Shown: one piece after another, positions 2,742-56,332 of the stretch
How positions within the stretch are numbered: the first letter of the stretch is position 1
How the letters are laid out: every line of letters starts with the position of its first letter
Assembly: GCA_964429235.1 (NCBI GenBank)
Contig: CAYSAQ010000002.1
Coordinates: 230,952 to 294,951 of the forward strand
Reading direction: 5' to 3'
Source: an uncultured Candidatus Marinamargulisbacteria bacterium
Lineage (GTDB): Bacteria > Margulisbacteria > Riflemargulisbacteria > GWF2-35-9 > DYQY01
Length of the DNA: 64,000 bases
Translations under genes and position numbers: made by a program
The notes under the pieces: generated by a model
Databases searched by the model: none
What the model was told of the DNA's origin: nothing
The model's input: the letters and a program-made list of their open reading frames with translations, nothing else

Positions 2742-3521
2742 TTATTCTAAACAGTATTTTTCGTTACATAAGCGATCTTTAAAAGGGTTTGCTCTTAGTT
2801 CAAATTTAAACAAATATGGATAGTCTGCATGCAAGTGTTTAATGTAAGAAAACCATTCTATAATAATTAACTTATAGCCTCTTTGGATGTCGGTAAGAAT
2901 ATGTTTTTGGTCTTCAATAGAATTCTTGGCAAGGTTCTTTCTTCTAAGAAGCTCTTCTGTTGTATGAAAAACAGACCATAATAGTGCGGTAAAAGCGTTA
3001 TGCTCTAATAAATTTTGGTTGCCTAGTAAGTTTAAAAGAAACTTTCTTTTTGAATCTAAGAAGTCTTTCAATCCTTCTACTTTTTCTCCATTATATTCTA
3101 ATGTGCATTTATGATTTTTTAGTTCTTTTTCTATTTTAATTAGGTCTTTAGCCGTCCATTCTTTATCGTGTTCGAATTTGACTTGTAATAGATGTTTATC
3201 TGAATCCAGTTGGGCCATTCTATACATAAGTTCTGAACCTGTTTCTGTAAAGAAAGCTCCGATTAGCATATTTAGCTTGTGAAGCTTTTCTTGTTTCTCT
3301 CTTTTTTCTAGAACTTGATGAATAATCATAGAAACGAATAGTACTTCTAATGGCAAGAAGGCTATGTCGCCAAACATGTAAATGAAGATGTGGTGCGCAT
3401 CGCGGAAAATGAGATAATGCTCAAAATATAGAAGTGCGCTGGATAGCACTAACATGCATCCGAGCCAAATTTGCCAAGGAATCTTTTTTAACATGTGGGT
3501 ATTATAGCTCATTTGTTTCAT
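2742..3521 (-). CDS. hypothetical membrane protein
   Basis: 259-aa ORF with two predicted hydrophobic helices near the N-terminus. No recognisable catalytic motif. Confidence 0.5.
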   Translation of the reverse strand: MKQMSYNTHMLKKIPWQIWLGCMLVLSSALLYFEHYLIFRDAHHIFIYMFGDIAFLPLEVLFVSMIIHQVLEKREKQEKLHKLNMLIGAFFTETGSELMYRMAQLDSDKHLLQVKFEHDKEWTAKDLIKIEKELKNHKCTLEYNGEKVEGLKDFLDSKRKFLLNLLGNQNLLEHNAFTALLWSVFHTTEELLRRKNLAKNSIEDQKHILTDIQRGYKLIIIEWFSYIKHLHADYPYLFKFELRANPFKDRLCNEKYCLE

Positions 3522-14131: not shown

Positions 14132-15213
14132 AAATGGGTAAAGACCTTTTCATTGAACCACTTTTCAAATTCTTCATTATCTTTGAAGTTGAATCCAAAC
14201 ACATTTTTCCAAATGGTTGGTGATTCCATACATAAATATACAAATTGATCTGGGTGGTGATTCTTGATAGCATCAATTAGTTCTTTATATGCTTTTTCTC
14301 GACGAAATCGAAGGTACCTGAATTTCTGGTCATCAGCCAAAATAAACTCATCCATATACAAGGGGCTCTTCCTTATGAAGGTTGGTTTTAGTCCTTTTGT
14401 GAATCTAAGGGTTCCTATGCTAATCCATCTTATTTTTTCTTTAGGGATTATTTTATAAATTTTATTTATTGTATTTTTGTAATCATCTGTATAATCCTTA
14501 TAAAGAATTACTGGGTCAAAATGAAAAGCAACATCATAACCATGGTCAGTGATTTTTTTAGCTGCTTTTAATCTTTCATCAAGAGAGGGAGTGTCTTTTT
14601 CAGAAGAGTTTGTCACAAGTTCTGAGTTTACAGACCAAGCAACTATAATGTTATTGGCTGGTTCTATTTTAAGTAGATTTTCGATGCTAACTGATTTTGT
14701 TTTAAGTTCTAGTATAACATTTTTGTGATCCTTAAAGACATTCACTAAGTCTGTAGAAAGTTCGCTTATTTCATCAGCAATAAGGCTGTCTGTAAATTCT
14801 CCAGTGCCAATCCTGTATAGTTGTTTGCTGTTTATGTAATTTCCAATTATGTTTTTCTGCATATAGCTTGTGGTATCCGTAAAAACTGATATTGATTCTG
14901 TTTTTAAGTAGTCTTGAAGAATGCAATATGTGCAGCCAAAGCTACAATTGTGACCAACATTAAGTATTCTGTAGTTGCAACAATGATATTTCGTTGTGCC
15001 AGGGCACATAACAACAGGATCCCCTTTTAGTTTGGTAAGAAGTAGTGTGTTTGGTGAGTCATGGAGTGCTAATATTTCTTTTAGATTATTATCCTCAAAA
15101 TATATCTTTTCTGCATTGGGTAATTTATTCAGCACCCTTTTAGTAATGACATCATTGACTACAAAATTGTTAATTAATAGTTTCGTGAAGTTATGAATAT
15201 TTTTATTTATCAT
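14128..15213 (-). CDS. spore photoproduct lyase family radical SAM protein
   Basis: 361 aa with a CxxxCxxC cluster (NCSFGCTYC, Cys 90/94/97), the same spacing and position as SplB. Overlaps both neighbouring genes by 4 nt. Confidence 0.8.
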   Translation of the reverse strand: MINKNIHNFTKLLINNFVVNDVITKRVLNKLPNAEKIYFEDNNLKEILALHDSPNTLLLTKLKGDPVVMCPGTTKYHCCNYRILNVGHNCSFGCTYCILQDYLKTESISVFTDTTSYMQKNIIGNYINSKQLYRIGTGEFTDSLIADEISELSTDLVNVFKDHKNVILELKTKSVSIENLLKIEPANNIIVAWSVNSELVTNSSEKDTPSLDERLKAAKKITDHGYDVAFHFDPVILYKDYTDDYKNTINKIYKIIPKEKIRWISIGTLRFTKGLKPTFIRKSPLYMDEFILADDQKFRYLRFRREKAYKELIDAIKNHHPDQFVYLCMESPTIWKNVFGFNFKDNEEFEKWFNEKVFTHL

Positions 15214-15620
15214 AGCCCTACCTTTCCGGTAATTAACAATGACAGTTCTTCAAGGTAGTTGCTTTTTTCTTCTAACATGTTTTTTGCTTTAGCCATTTCG
15301 CTCGCTGAGTTGCATAGGTAGTTAATGGTATATGCATCGCTTTCAAAGTTATCATTATAGATGATTCTAAAGTATGTATTTTGGTTATGAATTGATTTTA
15401 ATAGAGATGACAACTTTTTCTTGTACCTTGAATATTCCGGGTATCTTAATTCTCGAATATAGGTGATGAATGCGTCAGATATTTTATTGGCATCAGATTC
15501 AAACTTTTTAAAAGATTCTAGCGTTAATGTTCTATCTTGCAGCATTAATTCTTCTATAATTTCTTTTGCTTCTTTTTTTTGGTTATGATTAAGCCTAAAA
15601 TTCTTATAAATATTTTCCAT
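15210..15620 (-). CDS. hypothetical small protein, first gene of the SPL-family operon
   Basis: 136-aa ORF translationally coupled to the downstream radical SAM gene. No signal peptide. Confidence 0.5.
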   Translation of the reverse strand: MENIYKNFRLNHNQKKEAKEIIEELMLQDRTLTLESFKKFESDANKISDAFITYIRELRYPEYSRYKKKLSSLLKSIHNQNTYFRIIYNDNFESDAYTINYLCNSASEMAKAKNMLEEKSNYLEELSLLITGKVGL

Positions 15621-15678
15621 GTGCTTATTTTAACACTATAGCAGGATAAAATATGTTTCTTTAGTTAGCGACCATAAT

Positions 15679-15742
15679 CCCCCTTCGCCGAAAGGCTCTT
15701 ACCCCTTTGATAAAGGGGGCGCTGCTCCCTCGTCGAGGGAGC
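15679..15742. repeat. GC-rich palindromic element (two or three adjacent hairpins) in a divergent intergenic region
   Basis: Hairpin ccccttt-gat-aaagggg at 15702-15718 and gctccctcg-t-cgagggagc at 15724-15742, with a small gcc-gaaa-ggc stem-loop upstream. Sharply GC-rich against AT-rich flanks. Confidence 0.5.
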
Positions 15743-15950
15743 CTTTTATTAATTTATTTGATTATGAAAAGAAGGTATATTCCAAAGTGATAGGGGGAGT
15801 TAAGAAAGTGCCTAGTTGGTATATAATTAAATTATGAATTTTGAAGAAATAATAGAAGAACTAAAAAGTTTTGAGGATTCATAACTGCTATACTAGACAA
15901 AGAAGATTCAGTAAAATGGATAGCAAGAGATGCGAGGAGAGAGTTAGTAG

Positions 15951-31317: not shown

Positions 31318-31426
31318 CTATACAAGTTTCCTTCTATAAATCACGTTATCTAATATGGGTATAACTATGTTTAAAATCAGAGTATTTTGGGCACAATAAC
31401 TATATAAGATAAGGAGGTTGGATAAG

Positions 31427-32512
31427 ATGGCAGTAGGTATGAATACAAACACACTAACTTCGGCGAAGTTTAGAAAACCATCAGAAACCACTATCGAAAG
31501 TCTAGCGACGGTAAAGCCCGGGCCAGCAAATAAGGGGCTTGGAGCAACTAGTGCAGGAGCCGTATTCCTGCCAGTGCCTGGATTAAAAATTGCACAAACA
31601 ACTCCTCAAGAATTGCAAAAGCATGAAACAGTTACAAAAATAAATGCAGGAATTGAAGGTCTATGGGATGGCTCTAACGAAGTTGGGCCAAATGTAAAAG
31701 CATTTATAGCATCTAAAGTTGATGGATTTAAAGGAGCGGCTGGTCGTGAAGAGTGGCAGAGTTGGGGCAAAGAGTTTGTAGAAGCGATGGCTGCAGATTT
31801 AAAAATGTCTCCTGCTGAAGTTGAGGCGCTATCTCCTGCCGATATCTCTAAGTTGGTTGAAACGTTACAATCACAAATTAGCGCAACATGGCAGGTCAGT
31901 TTGTTTGGTCCTGATACATTGATGCATTTAGCTAAAAGGTTAGATAGTACACATGACGGTTTCTTAAATAATCTTAAAACAGACTTAAGCTCAGAAGCTG
32001 CAAAGACTTTTGATAGCAAATGGACAAAGATAACAAATTTTTATAAAGAGATAACAAAATTTGATAATCATTCAAAAGAGGATTTAGTAAAGTTTAATAA
32101 AGCAACTGTTCCATCTACAGATAAAGGTAGTCGATTAGCAAGCGTAGCTAGGCAAGTAGCCTCAGAAATGCCTGGTATTGGAAGATGTAAAAAGGGAGTT
32201 CGATTAGCTTTTGAAAAAGCAGGATTTGGAACAATTGCTGGATTGTCAGCGTATATGGCAGCCCCACAGTTAGCAAAAAGAGGTGGTTTTTCAGAGGCGT
32301 CTGTTAGTAGAAACCAATTGAAACAACTTCCAGCTGGAGCTGTTATTGTTTGGAATAAAGGAAGAATAGGCGGGGGCCGTTTGTCCTCTGCAGGGTTAGA
32401 GCACGGTCATATAGAAATATCATTAGGCAATGGTGGCGAGTTTGCATGCGATTATCAAGGAAGTGTTAATCCACAAAGAGCTCAAAGCTATAGAGTATTT
32501 ATTCCTAAATAA
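31427..32512 (+). CDS. hypothetical protein with C-terminal papain-fold (CHAP/NlpC-P60-like) amidase or peptidase domain (tentative)
   Basis: ATG at 31427 with aaggagg 9 nt upstream, preferred over the track's TTG at 31418. C-terminal GRCKKGVRLAFEKAGFG...AGAVIVWNKG...EHGHIEISLGNGG matches a Cys...His papain-like arrangement; N-terminus is S/T-rich with no signal peptide. Confidence 0.4.
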   Translation: MAVGMNTNTLTSAKFRKPSETTIESLATVKPGPANKGLGATSAGAVFLPVPGLKIAQTTPQELQKHETVTKINAGIEGLWDGSNEVGPNVKAFIASKVDGFKGAAGREEWQSWGKEFVEAMAADLKMSPAEVEALSPADISKLVETLQSQISATWQVSLFGPDTLMHLAKRLDSTHDGFLNNLKTDLSSEAAKTFDSKWTKITNFYKEITKFDNHSKEDLVKFNKATVPSTDKGSRLASVARQVASEMPGIGRCKKGVRLAFEKAGFGTIAGLSAYMAAPQLAKRGGFSEASVSRNQLKQLPAGAVIVWNKGRIGGGRLSSAGLEHGHIEISLGNGGEFACDYQGSVNPQRAQSYRVFIPK

Positions 32513-33025: not shown

Positions 33026-33540
33026 TATATTGTAACTCCAGCAGGAGGATTGAAGATTCTTGAAGCTAGTTCTTTGTCTATCATGAACAGGCCTCCACTA
33101 TCTTTGCCGATAAGTTTTAGGCTTTGTATAATACCGTCTGCAGTAGACTCTTCTTCTACTTGTTCATCAATAAACCATTGAAAAAAGCTTGTGCTTGCAT
33201 GGTCCTTAAGCTCAATAGCTAAGTTCATAAGGTTATTGATTTTTTCTGTTACTATTCTTTCATGGGCCAAAGCGTCTTCAAAAGCAGCAAGAGGAGATTT
33301 CCATTTGTTTTGTGGACCGTTGATTCCCGTTAAAGTTATTTTTCCACCACGTTCTAGAACATAGTCATAGAATTTTTTAGCATGAGACTGTTCTTCCATT
33401 ACTTGTACTTTCATCCAATTGGCAAAACCGTTTAGGTTTAAACTTGAGAAGTATGCTGCCATTGCAAGGTAAAGATAAGCTGAAAATAGCTCGAAGTTTA
33501 TTTGGTCATTAATGGCTTTTTCTATTTTTTTATCTAACAT
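33025..33540 (-). CDS. ferritin (non-heme)
   Basis: Ferritin-like di-iron helices (NFELFSAYLYLAMAAYF...VMEEQSHAKKFYDYVLERGG). I prefer the second Met (MLDKK, at 33540) because a ggagg SD precedes it on the coding strand; the track start is 33561. Confidence 0.85.
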   Translation of the reverse strand: MLDKKIEKAINDQINFELFSAYLYLAMAAYFSSLNLNGFANWMKVQVMEEQSHAKKFYDYVLERGGKITLTGINGPQNKWKSPLAAFEDALAHERIVTEKINNLMNLAIELKDHASTSFFQWFIDEQVEEESTADGIIQSLKLIGKDSGGLFMIDKELASRIFNPPAGVTI

Positions 33541-33567
33541 TTTTTGTTCCTCCAGCCTCACCCCCGG

Positions 33568-33589
33568 CCCCTCTCCTTCAGGAGAGGGG
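33568..33589. repeat. GC-rich perfect hairpin (9-bp stem) in a divergent intergenic region
   Basis: cccctctcc-ttca-ggagagggg lies immediately upstream of the ferritin start and is not a terminator by position. Confidence 0.5.
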
Positions 33590-33653
33590 GGAGAGAAAGT
33601 TCTTTTTCTTTTATTGTAGTGATTTAAATTTGAGATTCAAGTAAATTCTTTTA

Positions 33654-33695
33654 GCTCCCTCACTGAGGGGGATGTCGCAAAGCGACAGGGGGAGC
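33654..33695. repeat. compound GC-rich palindromic element
   Basis: gctccct...ccctca-c-tgaggg (33657-33669) and tgtcgc-aaa-gcgaca (33672-33686) are enclosed by gctccc/gggagc arms, about 45 nt upstream of the mfd-like start. Confidence 0.45.
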
Positions 33696-33739
33696 TATTA
33701 TTTGCCATTCACCCACATAACATATACAATAATTCAGCT

Positions 33740-35815
33740 ATGAAACTTCAGGTAGGCGTAAATGTAGATGTAGATTTAATAATAGAAGAGCTAGAGAATT
33801 ATAAATATTCTAGAGTTACCTTGGCTCTTAGTCCTGGTGATTATGCTATTAGAGGAAGCATTATAGATGTATTTCCTTCTAATCAAAATGTTCCTATTAG
33901 AATCGAGTTGTTTGATACAGAGATAGAAGATATCAGAACATTTGAGCCAACATCACAGCGATCCCTGACAAAGCTTAAAAATATTGAGATCAACCCTTTT
34001 GATAAGAATGTAAAGCATCATGATCATATTATCCCGCATGAAATATTATTTGATTTGAATCAAGGAGATAAGGTTGTTCATATCAACCATGGTATCGGTA
34101 TTTATCAAGGGCTAAAGAGGCTAAAGTTTGGTAAATATGAAGGCGAATATGCGGTAGTTGAGTATCAAGAAAATGACAAAATATATATCCCAATAGAACA
34201 GCTTACAAGAATTTATAAATTCTCTGGCGGGGTAGACCCTAAGGTTAATTCTTTAAGAGATAAACAATGGGAGAAGACTCAAAAAAAAGTTAAGAAGGTT
34301 GTAAAAGATGTAGCCAAAGACCTTTTTTATTTATATAAGAATCGTAAGCTTAATGAAGGGTTTTCTTTTGCTGAGGATAGCGAGATGTCTATACAGCTTG
34401 CAGAATCTTTTCCATTTAAGGAAACCAGAGACCAACAAAAGGCAATTGATGATGTTAGAAAAGATATGGAGTCTGCCAAAGTAATGGATAGGCTTATTTG
34501 TGGAGATGTTGGGTTTGGTAAAACAGAAGTAGCAATACGAGCAGCACTTAAAGCAGTAGAGAGTAGAAAGCAGGTCGTATTATTAGCGCCAACAACTATT
34601 CTTTCGAAGCAACATTATGAAGTGTTTAATAAGCGGCTAGGCATTCTCGGAGTTAATGTGGAGTTTCTTAATAGGTTTAAAACACGCAAGGAACAGAGAG
34701 ACACCTTGCAGAGGCTTCAGCAGGGATTAACAGACGTAATCGTGGGGACACATCGTTTGTTGCAAAAAGACGTAGAATTTGCAGATTTAGGGCTAGTGGT
34801 TATTGATGAAGAACAAAGATTTGGAGTGATGGCAAAGGAGCGATTAAAAAAGTATAGAAGCCATGTTGATGTGTTAACTCTTTCAGCGACACCGTTACCA
34901 AGGACGTTATATATGTCTATTTCTGGAATCAGAGATATTAGTGTTATTAATACCCCTCCGTTAGAGAGATTGCCGATTATTACAGAGGAACATGTATTTG
35001 ATATAGATTTTATTAAGAAGAAGATAAATAAAGAGACGCGTAGAAATGGACAGGTGTTTATCTTGCACAATCGTATTCACGACATTATTCACTTAAGGAA
35101 TCAGATACACAATGTGATGCCAGGTTTGGATATTAGAATAGGGCATGGGCAGATGAAGCCAAGAGAGCTTGAGCAGTTGATGGTTGAGTTTTATGAGAAT
35201 AAATTCCCCGTGCTTATAGCTACAACAATTATTGAAAATGGAGTAGATATCCCTAACGCTCATACTATTTTTGTAAATAACGCAGAGCATTTCGGGTTAG
35301 CACAATTGCATCAGTTGAGAGGGCGTGTTGGACGAAACCAGGTGCAGTCTTATTGTTATTTGATGTATAAAAATGCTGATAAATTTACTGATGAGGTTAA
35401 GACCAGGTTTGAGGCACTTATGGAATTCTCAACATTGGGTTCAGGGTATGATATAGCACTTAGAGATTTAGAGTTAAGAGGTATTGGGAATATTTTGGGC
35501 ACAGAGCAAAGCGGTTATATGGAAGCTGTTGGGTTTGAGTTCTATATGCATTTGCTAAATAATGCGATTGCTAAAGAAAAGGGAGTTCAGCAAAAAGAAC
35601 GACCATATATAACTATTTCATCCAAGATGCAGGCATATATTTCAGAAGATTATATTCCAGATATGAATATTCGATTGGCATTATATAAATCTATTGCGGA
35701 GCTAAGTAGTCAGAAACAGGTAGAAAGTTTGAAGCAAGAGTGTGTGGATAGGTTTGGTCCATTGCCGCATAACCTTGTTATTATGTTACAGGTTATTAGC
35801 GAAGAAGTAGTGTGA
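33740..35815 (+). CDS. mfd: transcription-repair coupling factor (Mfd)-like helicase, short form lacking the N-terminal UvrB-homology module
   Basis: 691 aa. Has the Mfd RNAP-interaction segment (GDKVVHINHGIGIYQG...KIYIPIEQL), SF2 motifs (GDVGFGKTEVA; VVIDEEQRFG; HQLRGRVGR) and the start of the C-terminal TRCF domain (LALYKSIA...DRFGPLP), then stops. Canonical Mfd is about 1150 aa. Confidence 0.8.
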   Translation: MKLQVGVNVDVDLIIEELENYKYSRVTLALSPGDYAIRGSIIDVFPSNQNVPIRIELFDTEIEDIRTFEPTSQRSLTKLKNIEINPFDKNVKHHDHIIPHEILFDLNQGDKVVHINHGIGIYQGLKRLKFGKYEGEYAVVEYQENDKIYIPIEQLTRIYKFSGGVDPKVNSLRDKQWEKTQKKVKKVVKDVAKDLFYLYKNRKLNEGFSFAEDSEMSIQLAESFPFKETRDQQKAIDDVRKDMESAKVMDRLICGDVGFGKTEVAIRAALKAVESRKQVVLLAPTTILSKQHYEVFNKRLGILGVNVEFLNRFKTRKEQRDTLQRLQQGLTDVIVGTHRLLQKDVEFADLGLVVIDEEQRFGVMAKERLKKYRSHVDVLTLSATPLPRTLYMSISGIRDISVINTPPLERLPIITEEHVFDIDFIKKKINKETRRNGQVFILHNRIHDIIHLRNQIHNVMPGLDIRIGHGQMKPRELEQLMVEFYENKFPVLIATTIIENGVDIPNAHTIFVNNAEHFGLAQLHQLRGRVGRNQVQSYCYLMYKNADKFTDEVKTRFEALMEFSTLGSGYDIALRDLELRGIGNILGTEQSGYMEAVGFEFYMHLLNNAIAKEKGVQQKERPYITISSKMQAYISEDYIPDMNIRLALYKSIAELSSQKQVESLKQECVDRFGPLPHNLVIMLQVISEEVV

Positions 35816-55666: not shown

Positions 55667-56233
55667 ATGTATGTAGCAGGCGTAGATGAAGCAGGTCGTG
55701 GAGCATTAGCTGGCCCAGTTGTGGCAGCAGCAATTGTGTTTTCTAAAGGTCAGGATATTTCTAAGTTCAGAGATTCTAAGAAACTATCTGCAAAACAGAG
55801 AGAAGCAATTTTTCAAAGTATAATCGACGAGTCGGAATCAATAGGTATTGGTGTAATACATCACGATATTATAGATCGGGTTAATATATTGCAGGCAACC
55901 TATCAGGCGATGAATAAAGCAGTGCTTCGGCTGCACCTAATGCCAACGCTGGTACTTGTTGATGGAAATCGCGAAATACCGCAATTAGAGCTCCCTCAGA
56001 AGACTATAGTGAAGGGCGACGATAAGATTCCGCTTATTTCAGCAGCATCTATTATTGCTAAAGTTGTTAGAGATAGAATTATGCTTGGATATGCTAAAGT
56101 TTTCCCTGAATATGAGTTTGAGAAACATAAGGGATATGGTACCAAGTTACATATGGAAAATATTGAGATTGCAGGGCTTAGCAGGATACATCGTAGGAGT
56201 TTTAATATTTCCAAACAGTTGGTTTTGTTTTAA
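55667..56233 (+). CDS. rnhB: ribonuclease HII
   Basis: 188 aa with the catalytic start YVAGVDEAGRGALAGPVV and the central DSKKLS motif. Confidence 0.9.
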   Translation: MYVAGVDEAGRGALAGPVVAAAIVFSKGQDISKFRDSKKLSAKQREAIFQSIIDESESIGIGVIHHDIIDRVNILQATYQAMNKAVLRLHLMPTLVLVDGNREIPQLELPQKTIVKGDDKIPLISAASIIAKVVRDRIMLGYAKVFPEYEFEKHKGYGTKLHMENIEIAGLSRIHRRSFNISKQLVLF

Positions 56234-56247
56234 CCCTTCCGTCTGCT

Positions 56248-56268
56248 AGCGCAGCCACCTTCCCTTCG
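56248..56268. repeat. GC-rich hairpin (9-bp stem) after rnhB; terminator-like but with no T-tract
   Basis: ccttccctt-cgt-aagggaagg, with a smaller ctgc-tagc-gcag hairpin at 56233-56244. Same pyrimidine-arm/purine-arm style as the other intergenic hairpins. Confidence 0.5.
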
Positions 56269-56332
56269 TAAGGGAAGGAGAATTCAGAGTGGTAACTTCA
56301 CAAAGATGTAATAATTTTGTTATAGTTATTAA

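Follow-up and report, generated by a model that had tools for sequence, protein, structure and literature searches.

Dispersed GC-rich repeats with the potential to fold as intrastrand triplexes have been described under the names BoxC, PIT and TM or TMECO (Bergler 1992; Hoyne et al. 2000, 2002; Holder et al. 2015, PMC4666352). BoxC and PIT have been known since 1992; by the account given in PMC4666352, BoxC was first described in the envM paper of Bergler et al. 1992. In the class II (purine-motif) arrangement, a pyrimidine block is joined by a complementary purine block and by a third block that matches the purine block in antiparallel orientation, with G opposite G and either A or T opposite A (PMC4666352). 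The ITxF definition specifies a stem of 6-15 nt and loops of 1-6 nt, and the TMECO consensus reads CCCTCNCCC N3-6 GGGNGAGGG N3 GGGNGAGGG, a second loop of TTA denoting type A and one of CCG type B (PMC4666352). The E. coli elements are always intergenic, show no orientation bias and mark unstable loci, and no transposase, integrase, phage or plasmid context was seen (PMC4666352). The triplex fold of the isolated G-rich strand was shown in vitro for E. coli TMECO by CD and NMR; a triplex was not detected in vivo for the E. coli elements, no promoter or terminator activity was found, and purine-motif triplexes do not form in RNA (PMC4666352). According to the work cited there, tests of PIT elements in E. 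coli likewise gave no transcription effect and no terminator activity (cited in PMC4666352), and the cited studies of 2000-2015 provided no function, origin or mobility gene for the family. A small nuclease gene that is selfish within its own target is known from a different setting, namely the free-standing homing endonuclease I-Bth0305I, which has a Vsr-like fold (PMC3424549).

The window analysed here, a 64,000-nt stretch of margulisbacterial DNA with a GC content of 35.5%, contains a 199-nt spacer bordered on one side by a ferritin gene on the minus strand and on the other by a short-form mfd gene on the plus strand (ATG at 33740), both assigned by Pfam calls. Two patches of this spacer reach a GC fraction of 0.65-0.75 around two palindromes, denoted H1 and H2 (Table 1). 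A first-pass annotation of this DNA had described a divergent promoter region filled with structured GC-rich palindromes, one close to the ferritin start and the other upstream of mfd. This description was confirmed, as the 9 bp stem of H1 lies 28 nt from the ATG at 33540, H2 ends 43 nt before the mfd ATG, and the patches of 65-75% GC belong to a 35% GC genome. The longest ferritin ORF opens with a GTG located 7 nt from H1; the ATG at 33540 appears to be the likelier start, because a GGAGG site precedes it and it yields the 171 aa ferritin of public gene calls. Promoter-like sites, both of them consensus predictions only, accompany the two genes: that of ferritin is situated in the AT-rich 62-nt stretch separating H1 from H2, and that of mfd begins 5 nt past H2.

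Table 1. Sequence features of the ferritin-mfd spacer and additional three-block units of the window (Y, pyrimidine block; R, purine block)
Feature	Position	Strand	Description
Ferritin ribosome-binding site	33549-33553	-	GGAGG; 8 nt before ATG 33540; unpaired in the folded predicted 5' UTR
H1 full unit	33556-33589	-	Y, R and third block; mirror match 9/9
H1 hairpin	33568-33589		CCCCTCTCC TTCA GGAGAGGGG; 9 bp stem, 4-nt loop; alternatively 10-nt arms 2 nt apart
H1 Y block	33589-33581	-	CCCCTCTCC, then loop TGAA
H1 R block	33576-33568	-	GGAGAGGGG, then loop CCG
H1 third (reverse-Hoogsteen-type) block	33564-33556	-	GGGGTGAGG
Ferritin promoter-like site (predicted)	33613-33640	-	-35 TTGAAT (33640-33635), 16-nt spacer, -10 TACAAT (33618-33613)
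H2	33652-33697	+	Compound palindrome; three-block unit whose second loop forms a hairpin; mirror match 7/7
H2 Y block	33655-33661	+	CTCCCTC, then loop ACT
H2 R block	33665-33671	+	GAGGGGG
H2 loop 2	33672-33687	+	A+TGTCGC-AAA-GCGACA, 16 nt
H2 third block	33688-33694	+	GGGGGAG
H2 alternative outer Watson-Crick stem	33652-33659 / 33690-33697	+	TAGCTCCC/GGGAGCTA
mfd promoter-like site (predicted)	33702-33730	+	-35 TTGCCA (33702-33707), 17-nt spacer, -10 TACAAT (33725-33730)
Unit (region 15676-15744)	15676-15718	-	Y CCCCTTT, R AAAGGGG, 19-nt loop 2 with small hairpin, third block GGGGATT
Unit	56232-56278	-	Y CCTTCCCTT, R AAGGGAAGG, 17-nt loop 2 hairpin CTGC-GCTA-GCAG, third block GGAAGGGTT (9/9)
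Unit	59019-59047	-	CTTTCCC / GGGAAAG / GATAGGG
Unit	59119-59150	+	CTTCCTC / GAGGAAG / GAAGGAG

Both palindromes form part of a larger three-block arrangement on one strand, consisting of a C-rich block, a G-rich block and a mirrored G-rich block, as in the BoxC/PIT/TMECO elements, and both agree with the class II definition over the full length of the third block (9/9 in H1 and 7/7 in H2). The third block of H1 is its purine arm mirrored, with one A replaced by T; a weaker C/T-rich extension continues upstream of H1 to about 33600 and could also pair with this third block. With 9-nt blocks, a 4-nt first loop and the CCG second loop of TMECO type B, H1 is near-identical to the E. coli type B element, which reads CCCTCTCCC / TGT / GGGAGAGGG / CCG / GGGTGAGGG (PMC4666352 Table 1), the same layout on the minus strand of H1 being CCCCTCTCC / TGAA / GGAGAGGGG / CCG / GGGGTGAGG. 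The two differ in that the register of H1 is shifted by one, one G/C having moved from the outer to the inner end in all three blocks. This shift is a three-way compensated change by which both the Watson-Crick and the mirror relations are kept. The strict TMECO pattern gave 0 matches on either strand of the 64-kb window.

H2 represents a variant of the same design, since its second loop is itself a hairpin. The loops of H1 (4 and 3 nt) fall inside the published limits, whereas the 16-nt second loop of H2 falls outside them; the search of Hoyne et al. reportedly permitted loops of 0-10 nt. H2 also contains CCCTCA/TGAGGG pairing arms, and its architecture equals that of two units (B and C) found in the related genomes discussed below. 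Moreover, the unit upstream of a DUF559 nuclease gene in one viral contig (L152) encloses a hairpin, GTCGC-GAA-GCGAC, near-identical to that of H2. One H2-specific pattern had 0 matches in the viral contigs, which held no close copy of H2; three matches to a second pattern were discarded as an unrelated short hairpin before a phage gene. The class membership of H2 is thus one of grammar rather than of sequence likeness. About half of the units found at DUF559 genes share with H2 a hairpin second loop of 14-24 nt, which distinguishes them from the published elements, as does the margulisbacterial host. In other respects the units resemble the described class: they are intergenic, occur in either orientation and often as inverted pairs, and are GC-rich even in AT-rich genomes.

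We consider it probable, at roughly 70%, that H1 and H2 are two independent copies of the dispersed GC-rich intrastrand-triplex repeats known as BoxC, PIT and TM/TMECO, generic units and not regulators of particular genes. The local explanation is an ordinary one, namely dispersed repeats of a known type in a new phylum, with one hairpin-loop variant. H1 and H2 would be solo units and not a matched pair, since their types differ and the conserved ferritin promoter lies between them; an origin of both as one inverted pair left behind by a cassette deletion was rejected. H-DNA mirror repeats share the mirror symmetry of the purine block and the identical base-triad code, but H-DNA comprises two blocks in a duplex, whereas the present units possess a third, complementary block and a single strand folds on itself. 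A G-quadruplex in the G-rich strand was set aside, given that the E. coli relatives form a triplex by NMR (PMC4666352) and that a quadruplex needs no mirror rule. Searches of Rfam returned a best E-value of 0.37 for the spacer at a permissive threshold, and no relevant matches at the gathering threshold for 35 related loci.

The nearest genomes, one assigned to Candidatus Marinamargulisbacteria (L003) and the other to Riflemargulisbacteria (L010), show 76% Mfd identity, and a search for closer relatives with the ferritin homologue gave a nearest non-identical protein that is about 70% identical. The order flavin reductase, ferritin, mfd is kept in L003, where five units of this grammar share the ferritin-mfd spacer with a unit-flanked DUF559 gene of 134 aa (Pfam PF04480, E = 1.7e-31). 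In L010, a unit-flanked DUF559 cassette immediately precedes mfd, its other neighbour being a different gene. In the 64-kb window itself, tblastn with two DUF559 proteins revealed no DUF559 gene (nothing below E = 0.5). The -35/-10 pair TTGAAT/TACAAT is conserved upstream of the L003 ferritin gene, and the TTGCC box of mfd is conserved as well, in L010 as TTTGCC directly after the last unit. The place of H2 is that of the last unit ahead of the mfd -35 box, and a unit lies directly upstream of this box in 3/3 related genomes. Within this clade, units recur upstream of mfd, and the presence of a unit there in all three genomes could reflect retention for a local function. Compared with L003, the interval from the conserved -10 box to the ribosome-binding site is longer by ~40-45 nt, the additional sequence being H1. 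Together with the BoxC/PIT class of both units, this supports one of the options named in the first-pass annotation, that of an inserted palindromic element.

The relatives also bear on the possibility that H1 is kept for a role in RNA, as a leader stem-loop that stabilises the ferritin mRNA or tunes its translation, H2 being unrelated. From the promoter model, ferritin transcription is predicted to start at ~33606, with H1 at a distance of 8-17 nt from the 5' end; the leader transcript would then carry H1 as a stem-loop close to this end, and the ribosome-binding site would remain accessible. Both the third and the R block are, furthermore, Shine-Dalgarno-like, and at several loci the third block is found 5-15 nt before a start codon. 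On the other hand, the L003 ferritin gene has the same promoter and ribosome-binding site and lacks H1, and units occur in either orientation to genes and also in convergent spacers. PIT elements were without transcription effect in E. coli by the account cited above, and since purine-motif triplexes are not formed in RNA (PMC4666352), the hairpin part alone would have to act. We regard such a role as unlikely. The structured 5' UTR offered by the first-pass annotation can be entertained as a side effect for H1, given the predicted promoter upstream of it, and not for H2.

A function as terminators or insulators, guarding ferritin or mfd against read-through, is decidedly improbable. A scan flagged the plus strand of H1 as terminator-like, with a T-rich run after it, the units of L003 and L010 lie between a DUF559 gene and an mfd gene that are co-directional, and GC hairpins of the window are found at gene 3' ends (see below). 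Against this, no gene outside the spacer is transcribed toward H1 or H2 in the window, H2 was not flagged and has no proper T-tract, and the mirrored third block plays no part in termination; the cited E. coli tests of PIT elements showed no terminator activity either. As a secondary use of a generic repeat, H1 might serve ferritin as a leader hairpin, or a unit ahead of mfd might act as an insulator.

The generic nature of the repeat is apparent within the window. A three-block detector found 6 complete units in the 64 kb, against a mean of 0.4 in simulated sequence. The six units are distributed over four intergenic spacers and both strands, with inverted pairs in two of the spacers. GC hairpins with a pyrimidine 5' arm numbered 9 against 0.6 in simulated sequence and were the sole over-represented hairpin class, all remaining hairpins amounting to 127 against 128 expected; since the detectors demand perfect stems, units are undercounted. 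The unit at 15676 is adjoined by a GC hairpin, GCTCCCTCG/CGAGGGAGC, within the region 15676-15744, a divergent spacer between an unknown 136-aa ORF and pth. The unit at 56232 has rnhB on one side and the UPF0102/YraN gene on the other, and the two units within 59019-59150 form a pair of inverted orientation in a convergent spacer. GC hairpins at 21663 and 40075 are located at gene 3' ends. Exact or near-exact copies of H1 or of H2 were not found elsewhere in the 64-kb window.

Beyond the window, the 21-mer of H1, GGAGAGGGGCCGGGGGTGAGG, was found exactly in 119 stretches of IMG/VR viral contigs with GC contents of 38-74%, a set that may include bacterial fragments. There, CCCCTC(T/G)CC followed by a short loop nearly always precedes it, and a single contig stretch contained as many as four copies; in phage-like contigs of lower GC it lies in short intergenic gaps, in either orientation. 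BLAST also located it in plasmids of Sphingomonas, Sulfitobacter and Pseudanabaena, where it lies in unannotated intergenic DNA. A second common sequence type consists of GCCTCCCC-N4-GGGGAGGT, a variable hairpin and then GGAG(G/A)GGT, the inner hairpin varying in sequence while its pairing is kept.

This distribution weighs heavily against the suggestion of the first-pass annotation that an iron- or oxidative-stress regulator could use the palindromes as operators. Such a regulator would be a dimeric protein, for example Fur, PerR or another iron or redox sensor, that would co-control ferritin and mfd. Two divergent promoter-like sites do border the location, H2 reaches the -35 region of each, and in L003 and L010 a unit takes up this position ahead of mfd as well. 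Fur and PerR boxes, however, are AT-rich and consist of a 19-bp or a 7-1-7 inverted repeat. The units are built of GC-rich homopurine/homopyrimidine blocks, and their symmetry is that of a hairpin plus a one-strand mirror repeat instead of a simple dyad of typical operator size. The best Fur/PerR-like matches in the spacer scored 11/19 and 11/15, which places them in the top 0.3-0.8% of window positions and about at chance for a 200-nt spacer; Fur, PerR and OxyR-like boxes were all at chance level there. Numerous unrelated loci carry the element, as do phage-like contigs that differ widely in GC, and the ferritin gene of L003 does without H1. Identical elements at unrelated loci, which the first-pass annotation itself had held to speak against an operator, were indeed found, in the form of the H1 21-mer in the viral-contig stretches and plasmids, and the four further units of the same grammar in the window adjoin unrelated genes. 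In the absence of a box, with the wrong kind of symmetry and with generic copies elsewhere, an iron or redox operator is very unlikely.

An origin of the palindromes by chance from GC-rich surroundings can practically be dismissed: the folding energy of H1 differs only weakly from that of dinucleotide shuffles (z = -0.8 to -1.6), as expected if the composition of a C-run and a G-run alone guarantees pairing, but that of H2 differs clearly (z = -3.2 and -4.2), neither sequence was matched in 100 shuffles, the counts of pyrimidine-first hairpins and of units exceed simulation, and the 21-mer of H1 is exact in independent viral-contig stretches.

The reading of H1 and H2 as dispersed triplex-type repeats raises the matter of the gene that accompanies the units in L003 and L010. 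DUF559 is, to our knowledge, a large uncharacterised nuclease family. A metagenome scan with a DUF559 alignment yielded 80 loci with GC contents of 34-69%, of which the 67 with an ORF of normal size were used. Pyrimidine-first hairpins occurred at 5.4 per kb within 150 nt of the DUF559 ends, compared with 0.14 per kb elsewhere in the same loci, and complete units at 4.9 per kb upstream and 3.2 per kb downstream, compared with 0.10. This corresponds to a 30-50 times enrichment of units at the gene ends, in inverted orientation, and 41 of the 67 loci had a complete unit on both sides. On the upstream side the G-rich strand mostly coincided with the coding strand (37:13), on the downstream side with the opposite one (8:34); therefore, the third blocks usually face the DUF559 gene. 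The downstream unit often overlaps the last DUF559 codons. Within a locus, the sequences on either side of the DUF559 gene match as inverted repeats, with a median score of 37.5 versus 18 for mismatched loci (p = 3.6e-16).

These loci also reveal the rules of the third block. It mirrored the purine block in 102 cases and copied it directly in 16 (p = 1.7e-16), and opposite an A of the purine block it carried A 85 times, T 84 times and G once. This A/T-not-G rule is the purine-motif triad code. The mirror-rule and enrichment statistics come from this independent DUF559 set, the loci L012-L250 having been chosen by pattern and being biased in that respect. The second loop of the units at DUF559 genes is bimodal, either 3 nt or a hairpin of 14-24 nt. 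DUF559 genes are flanked by units likewise in two viral-contig loci (L077 and L152), and in Picosynechococcus, Synechocystis, Pseudanabaena, Deinococcus aetherius, Azospirillum lipoferum and Neisseria gonorrhoeae. The published elements have a context without mobility genes, whereas the units described here bracket DUF559 genes and occur in viral contigs and plasmids. The similarity of DUF559 proteins follows the type of unit weakly (27/41 nearest neighbours sharing it, 18 being expected), and a claim of co-evolution was dropped on this account.

In E. coli K-12, a degenerate unit forms the end of the DUF559 gene ycjD, and a canonical BoxC follows about 190 nt later, upstream of fabI. The gene fabI is the old envM. 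As envM is the gene of the 1992 report, the copy next to ycjD is very likely the founding BoxC. A clean empty site for ycjD and this BoxC was sought among 5,426 E. coli genomes and rejected: about 2,000 of them lack the segment, with a breakpoint just after BoxC, which represents a larger replacement.

The physical association between DUF559 genes and the units is directly observed; an enzymatic action on the units is hypothetical. We tentatively propose that DUF559 nucleases (COG2852, Vsr-like) are the missing partner of the BoxC/PIT repeats, the gene being placed between inverted units in at least six phyla. The nuclease may recognise the unit in folded or mismatched form and mobilise or maintain it, in the manner of RAYT with REP, or the gene may home into palindromic pairs of units. 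As part of the same tentative proposal, units with a hairpin as second loop may form a large sub-class missed by earlier searches. A literature search, which left most subscription journals outside its reach, retrieved no paper linking DUF559 to BoxC or PIT. The nearest solved structure to DUF559 is 3hrl (NGO0050), a protein of no assigned function.

Two known systems offer models for such a partnership. Like REP/REPIN sequences and their RAYT genes, the units are short GC-rich intergenic palindromes, present singly and as inverted pairs, that flank a small nuclease-type gene as inverted copies and far outnumber it. They differ in having no Y1 (RAYT) transposase, the flanked genes being DUF559 genes of the Vsr-like PD-(D/E)XK type of about 120 aa, and in their mirrored third block; the GTAG/CGTC tag of REP is absent from H1 and H2. 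In addition, REPs are species-specific, whereas the sequence of the units is common across phyla. The Vsr-like homing endonucleases are likewise small PD-(D/E)XK proteins of Vsr fold, and a DUF559 gene centred in a palindromic pair of units would resemble them. They differ in that the DUF559 genes show no intron or intein context, that an allele pair with exact-junction empty and filled sites was not found, and that the sequence similarity between DUF559 and I-Bth0305I (PDB 3r3p) is marginal (E = 0.33).

The following mechanism is proposed. The C/T block and the complementary G/A block pair as a hairpin on one strand, and in single-stranded DNA the third block would fold back on this hairpin to form a purine-motif triplex (G.G-C, A.A-T and T.A-T), as we infer for H1 and H2. 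In many phyla, small DUF559 (Vsr-like PD-(D/E)XK) genes have units in inverted orientation at either end, solo units and pairs being far commoner, and the units would spread or persist through DNA-level events at the folded structure. Units and nuclease might then constitute a selfish pair comparable to REP/RAYT, or to a homing-type gene amid a palindromic target. In the ferritin-mfd spacer the nuclease gene is absent and two solo units are left, so that the link of H1 and H2 to DUF559 runs through the relatives at 76% Mfd identity. H2 would directly adjoin the two promoters at their -35 boxes; judging from the E. coli tests, the effect of H1 and H2 on the expression of ferritin or mfd is probably small.

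For this locus, a tempting regulatory reading is removed, and generic repeats of this kind are unfit for inferring an iron or stress regulon. More broadly, the association with DUF559 supplies the repeat family, which has lacked a partner since 1992, with a concrete candidate. The bracketing of DUF559 genes across phyla, the occurrence in phage-like contigs and plasmids, and the covarying second-loop hairpin in half of the units lead to a testable hypothesis, in which a structure-specific nuclease is paired with triplex-forming repeats. If it is true, H1 and H2 would be orphan ends of a DUF559-repeat system. DUF559 genes were also among the enriched targets in a survey of programmed inversions (PMC9881135), which fits genes located between inverted repeats.

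Stand-alone units were also observed within the Margulisbacteria clade to which the window belongs. The Riflemargulisbacteria relative L010 carries an inverted pair at an unrelated locus, not accompanied by a nuclease gene; therefore, solo unit pairs exist in this clade too. Within the window itself, a further full three-block unit was identified, and a second divergent spacer, situated upstream of both pth and a 136-aa ORF of unknown function lacking a Pfam match, carries a unit together with an additional GC hairpin and a T-run. The UPF0102/YraN gene beside the former unit (114 aa, Pfam E = 1.9e-24) represents a further small PD-(D/E)XK-type nuclease.

Coordinates of the features described in this part
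Feature	Location	Remark
Inverted unit pair, stand-alone	L010 1665-1772	unrelated locus, Riflemargulisbacteria genome
Full three-block unit and gene region	window 56232-56677	unit between rnhB and UPF0102/YraN gene
Unit, GC hairpin and T-run	window 15676-15744	second divergent spacer
136-aa ORF	window 15210-15620	
TGAAGGAGAG of H1	window 33571-33580 (minus)	10 nt
mfd, short form	window 33740-35815	691 aa
364-aa ORF	window 31418-32512	adjoins flavin reductase gene
ycjD-BoxC region	E. coli K-12 1351040-1351830	L336
Block of about 90 nt	L132, L133, L148, L154, L155, L167, L169	viral contigs, around the GCCTCCCCTAGCGGGGAGGT match

The sequence TGAAGGAGAG, comprising the loop and the first part of the purine block of H1 (one of the two units in the ferritin-mfd spacer), exactly matches the ferritin ribosome-binding-site region of L003, a Candidatus Marinamargulisbacteria relative (about 3183-3192). 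This identity may be due to chance or may reflect microhomology where the unit entered. The adjacent mfd product begins at the UvrB-interaction domain, and its C-terminal TRCF domain match stops at position 59 of 95. Because mfd of L003 is equal in length, the gene does not look like a pseudogene but like a short Mfd that occurs naturally in this clade. The 364-aa ORF, which has no Pfam domain, is conserved in two public contigs, L001 and L002.

In E. coli K-12, a partial copy of the 3' end of ycjD, a DUF559 gene, sits between ycjD and BoxC. The K-12-type ycjD-BoxC segment is missing in about 2,000 of the 5,426 complete E. coli genomes, the breakpoint being located a few tens of nt 3' of BoxC; in O157 strain AR-0429, the single segment-lacking genome examined, genes encoding a TetR-family regulator and RND efflux proteins are found upstream of fabI instead.

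Many viral contigs share a repeated block of roughly 90 nt (…GGTCCTG(C/T)TAG(C/G)C GCCTCCCCTAGCGGGGAGGT GGAGGGG … GTCAA … TATGAGCAAAT), which gave no Rfam match and may constitute a phage RNA or DNA element not yet described. Another unit type, consisting of AGGAGGGGA and GAGGGGAGGT separated by 2-3 nt, occurs in at least eight copies in a single viral contig (L023).
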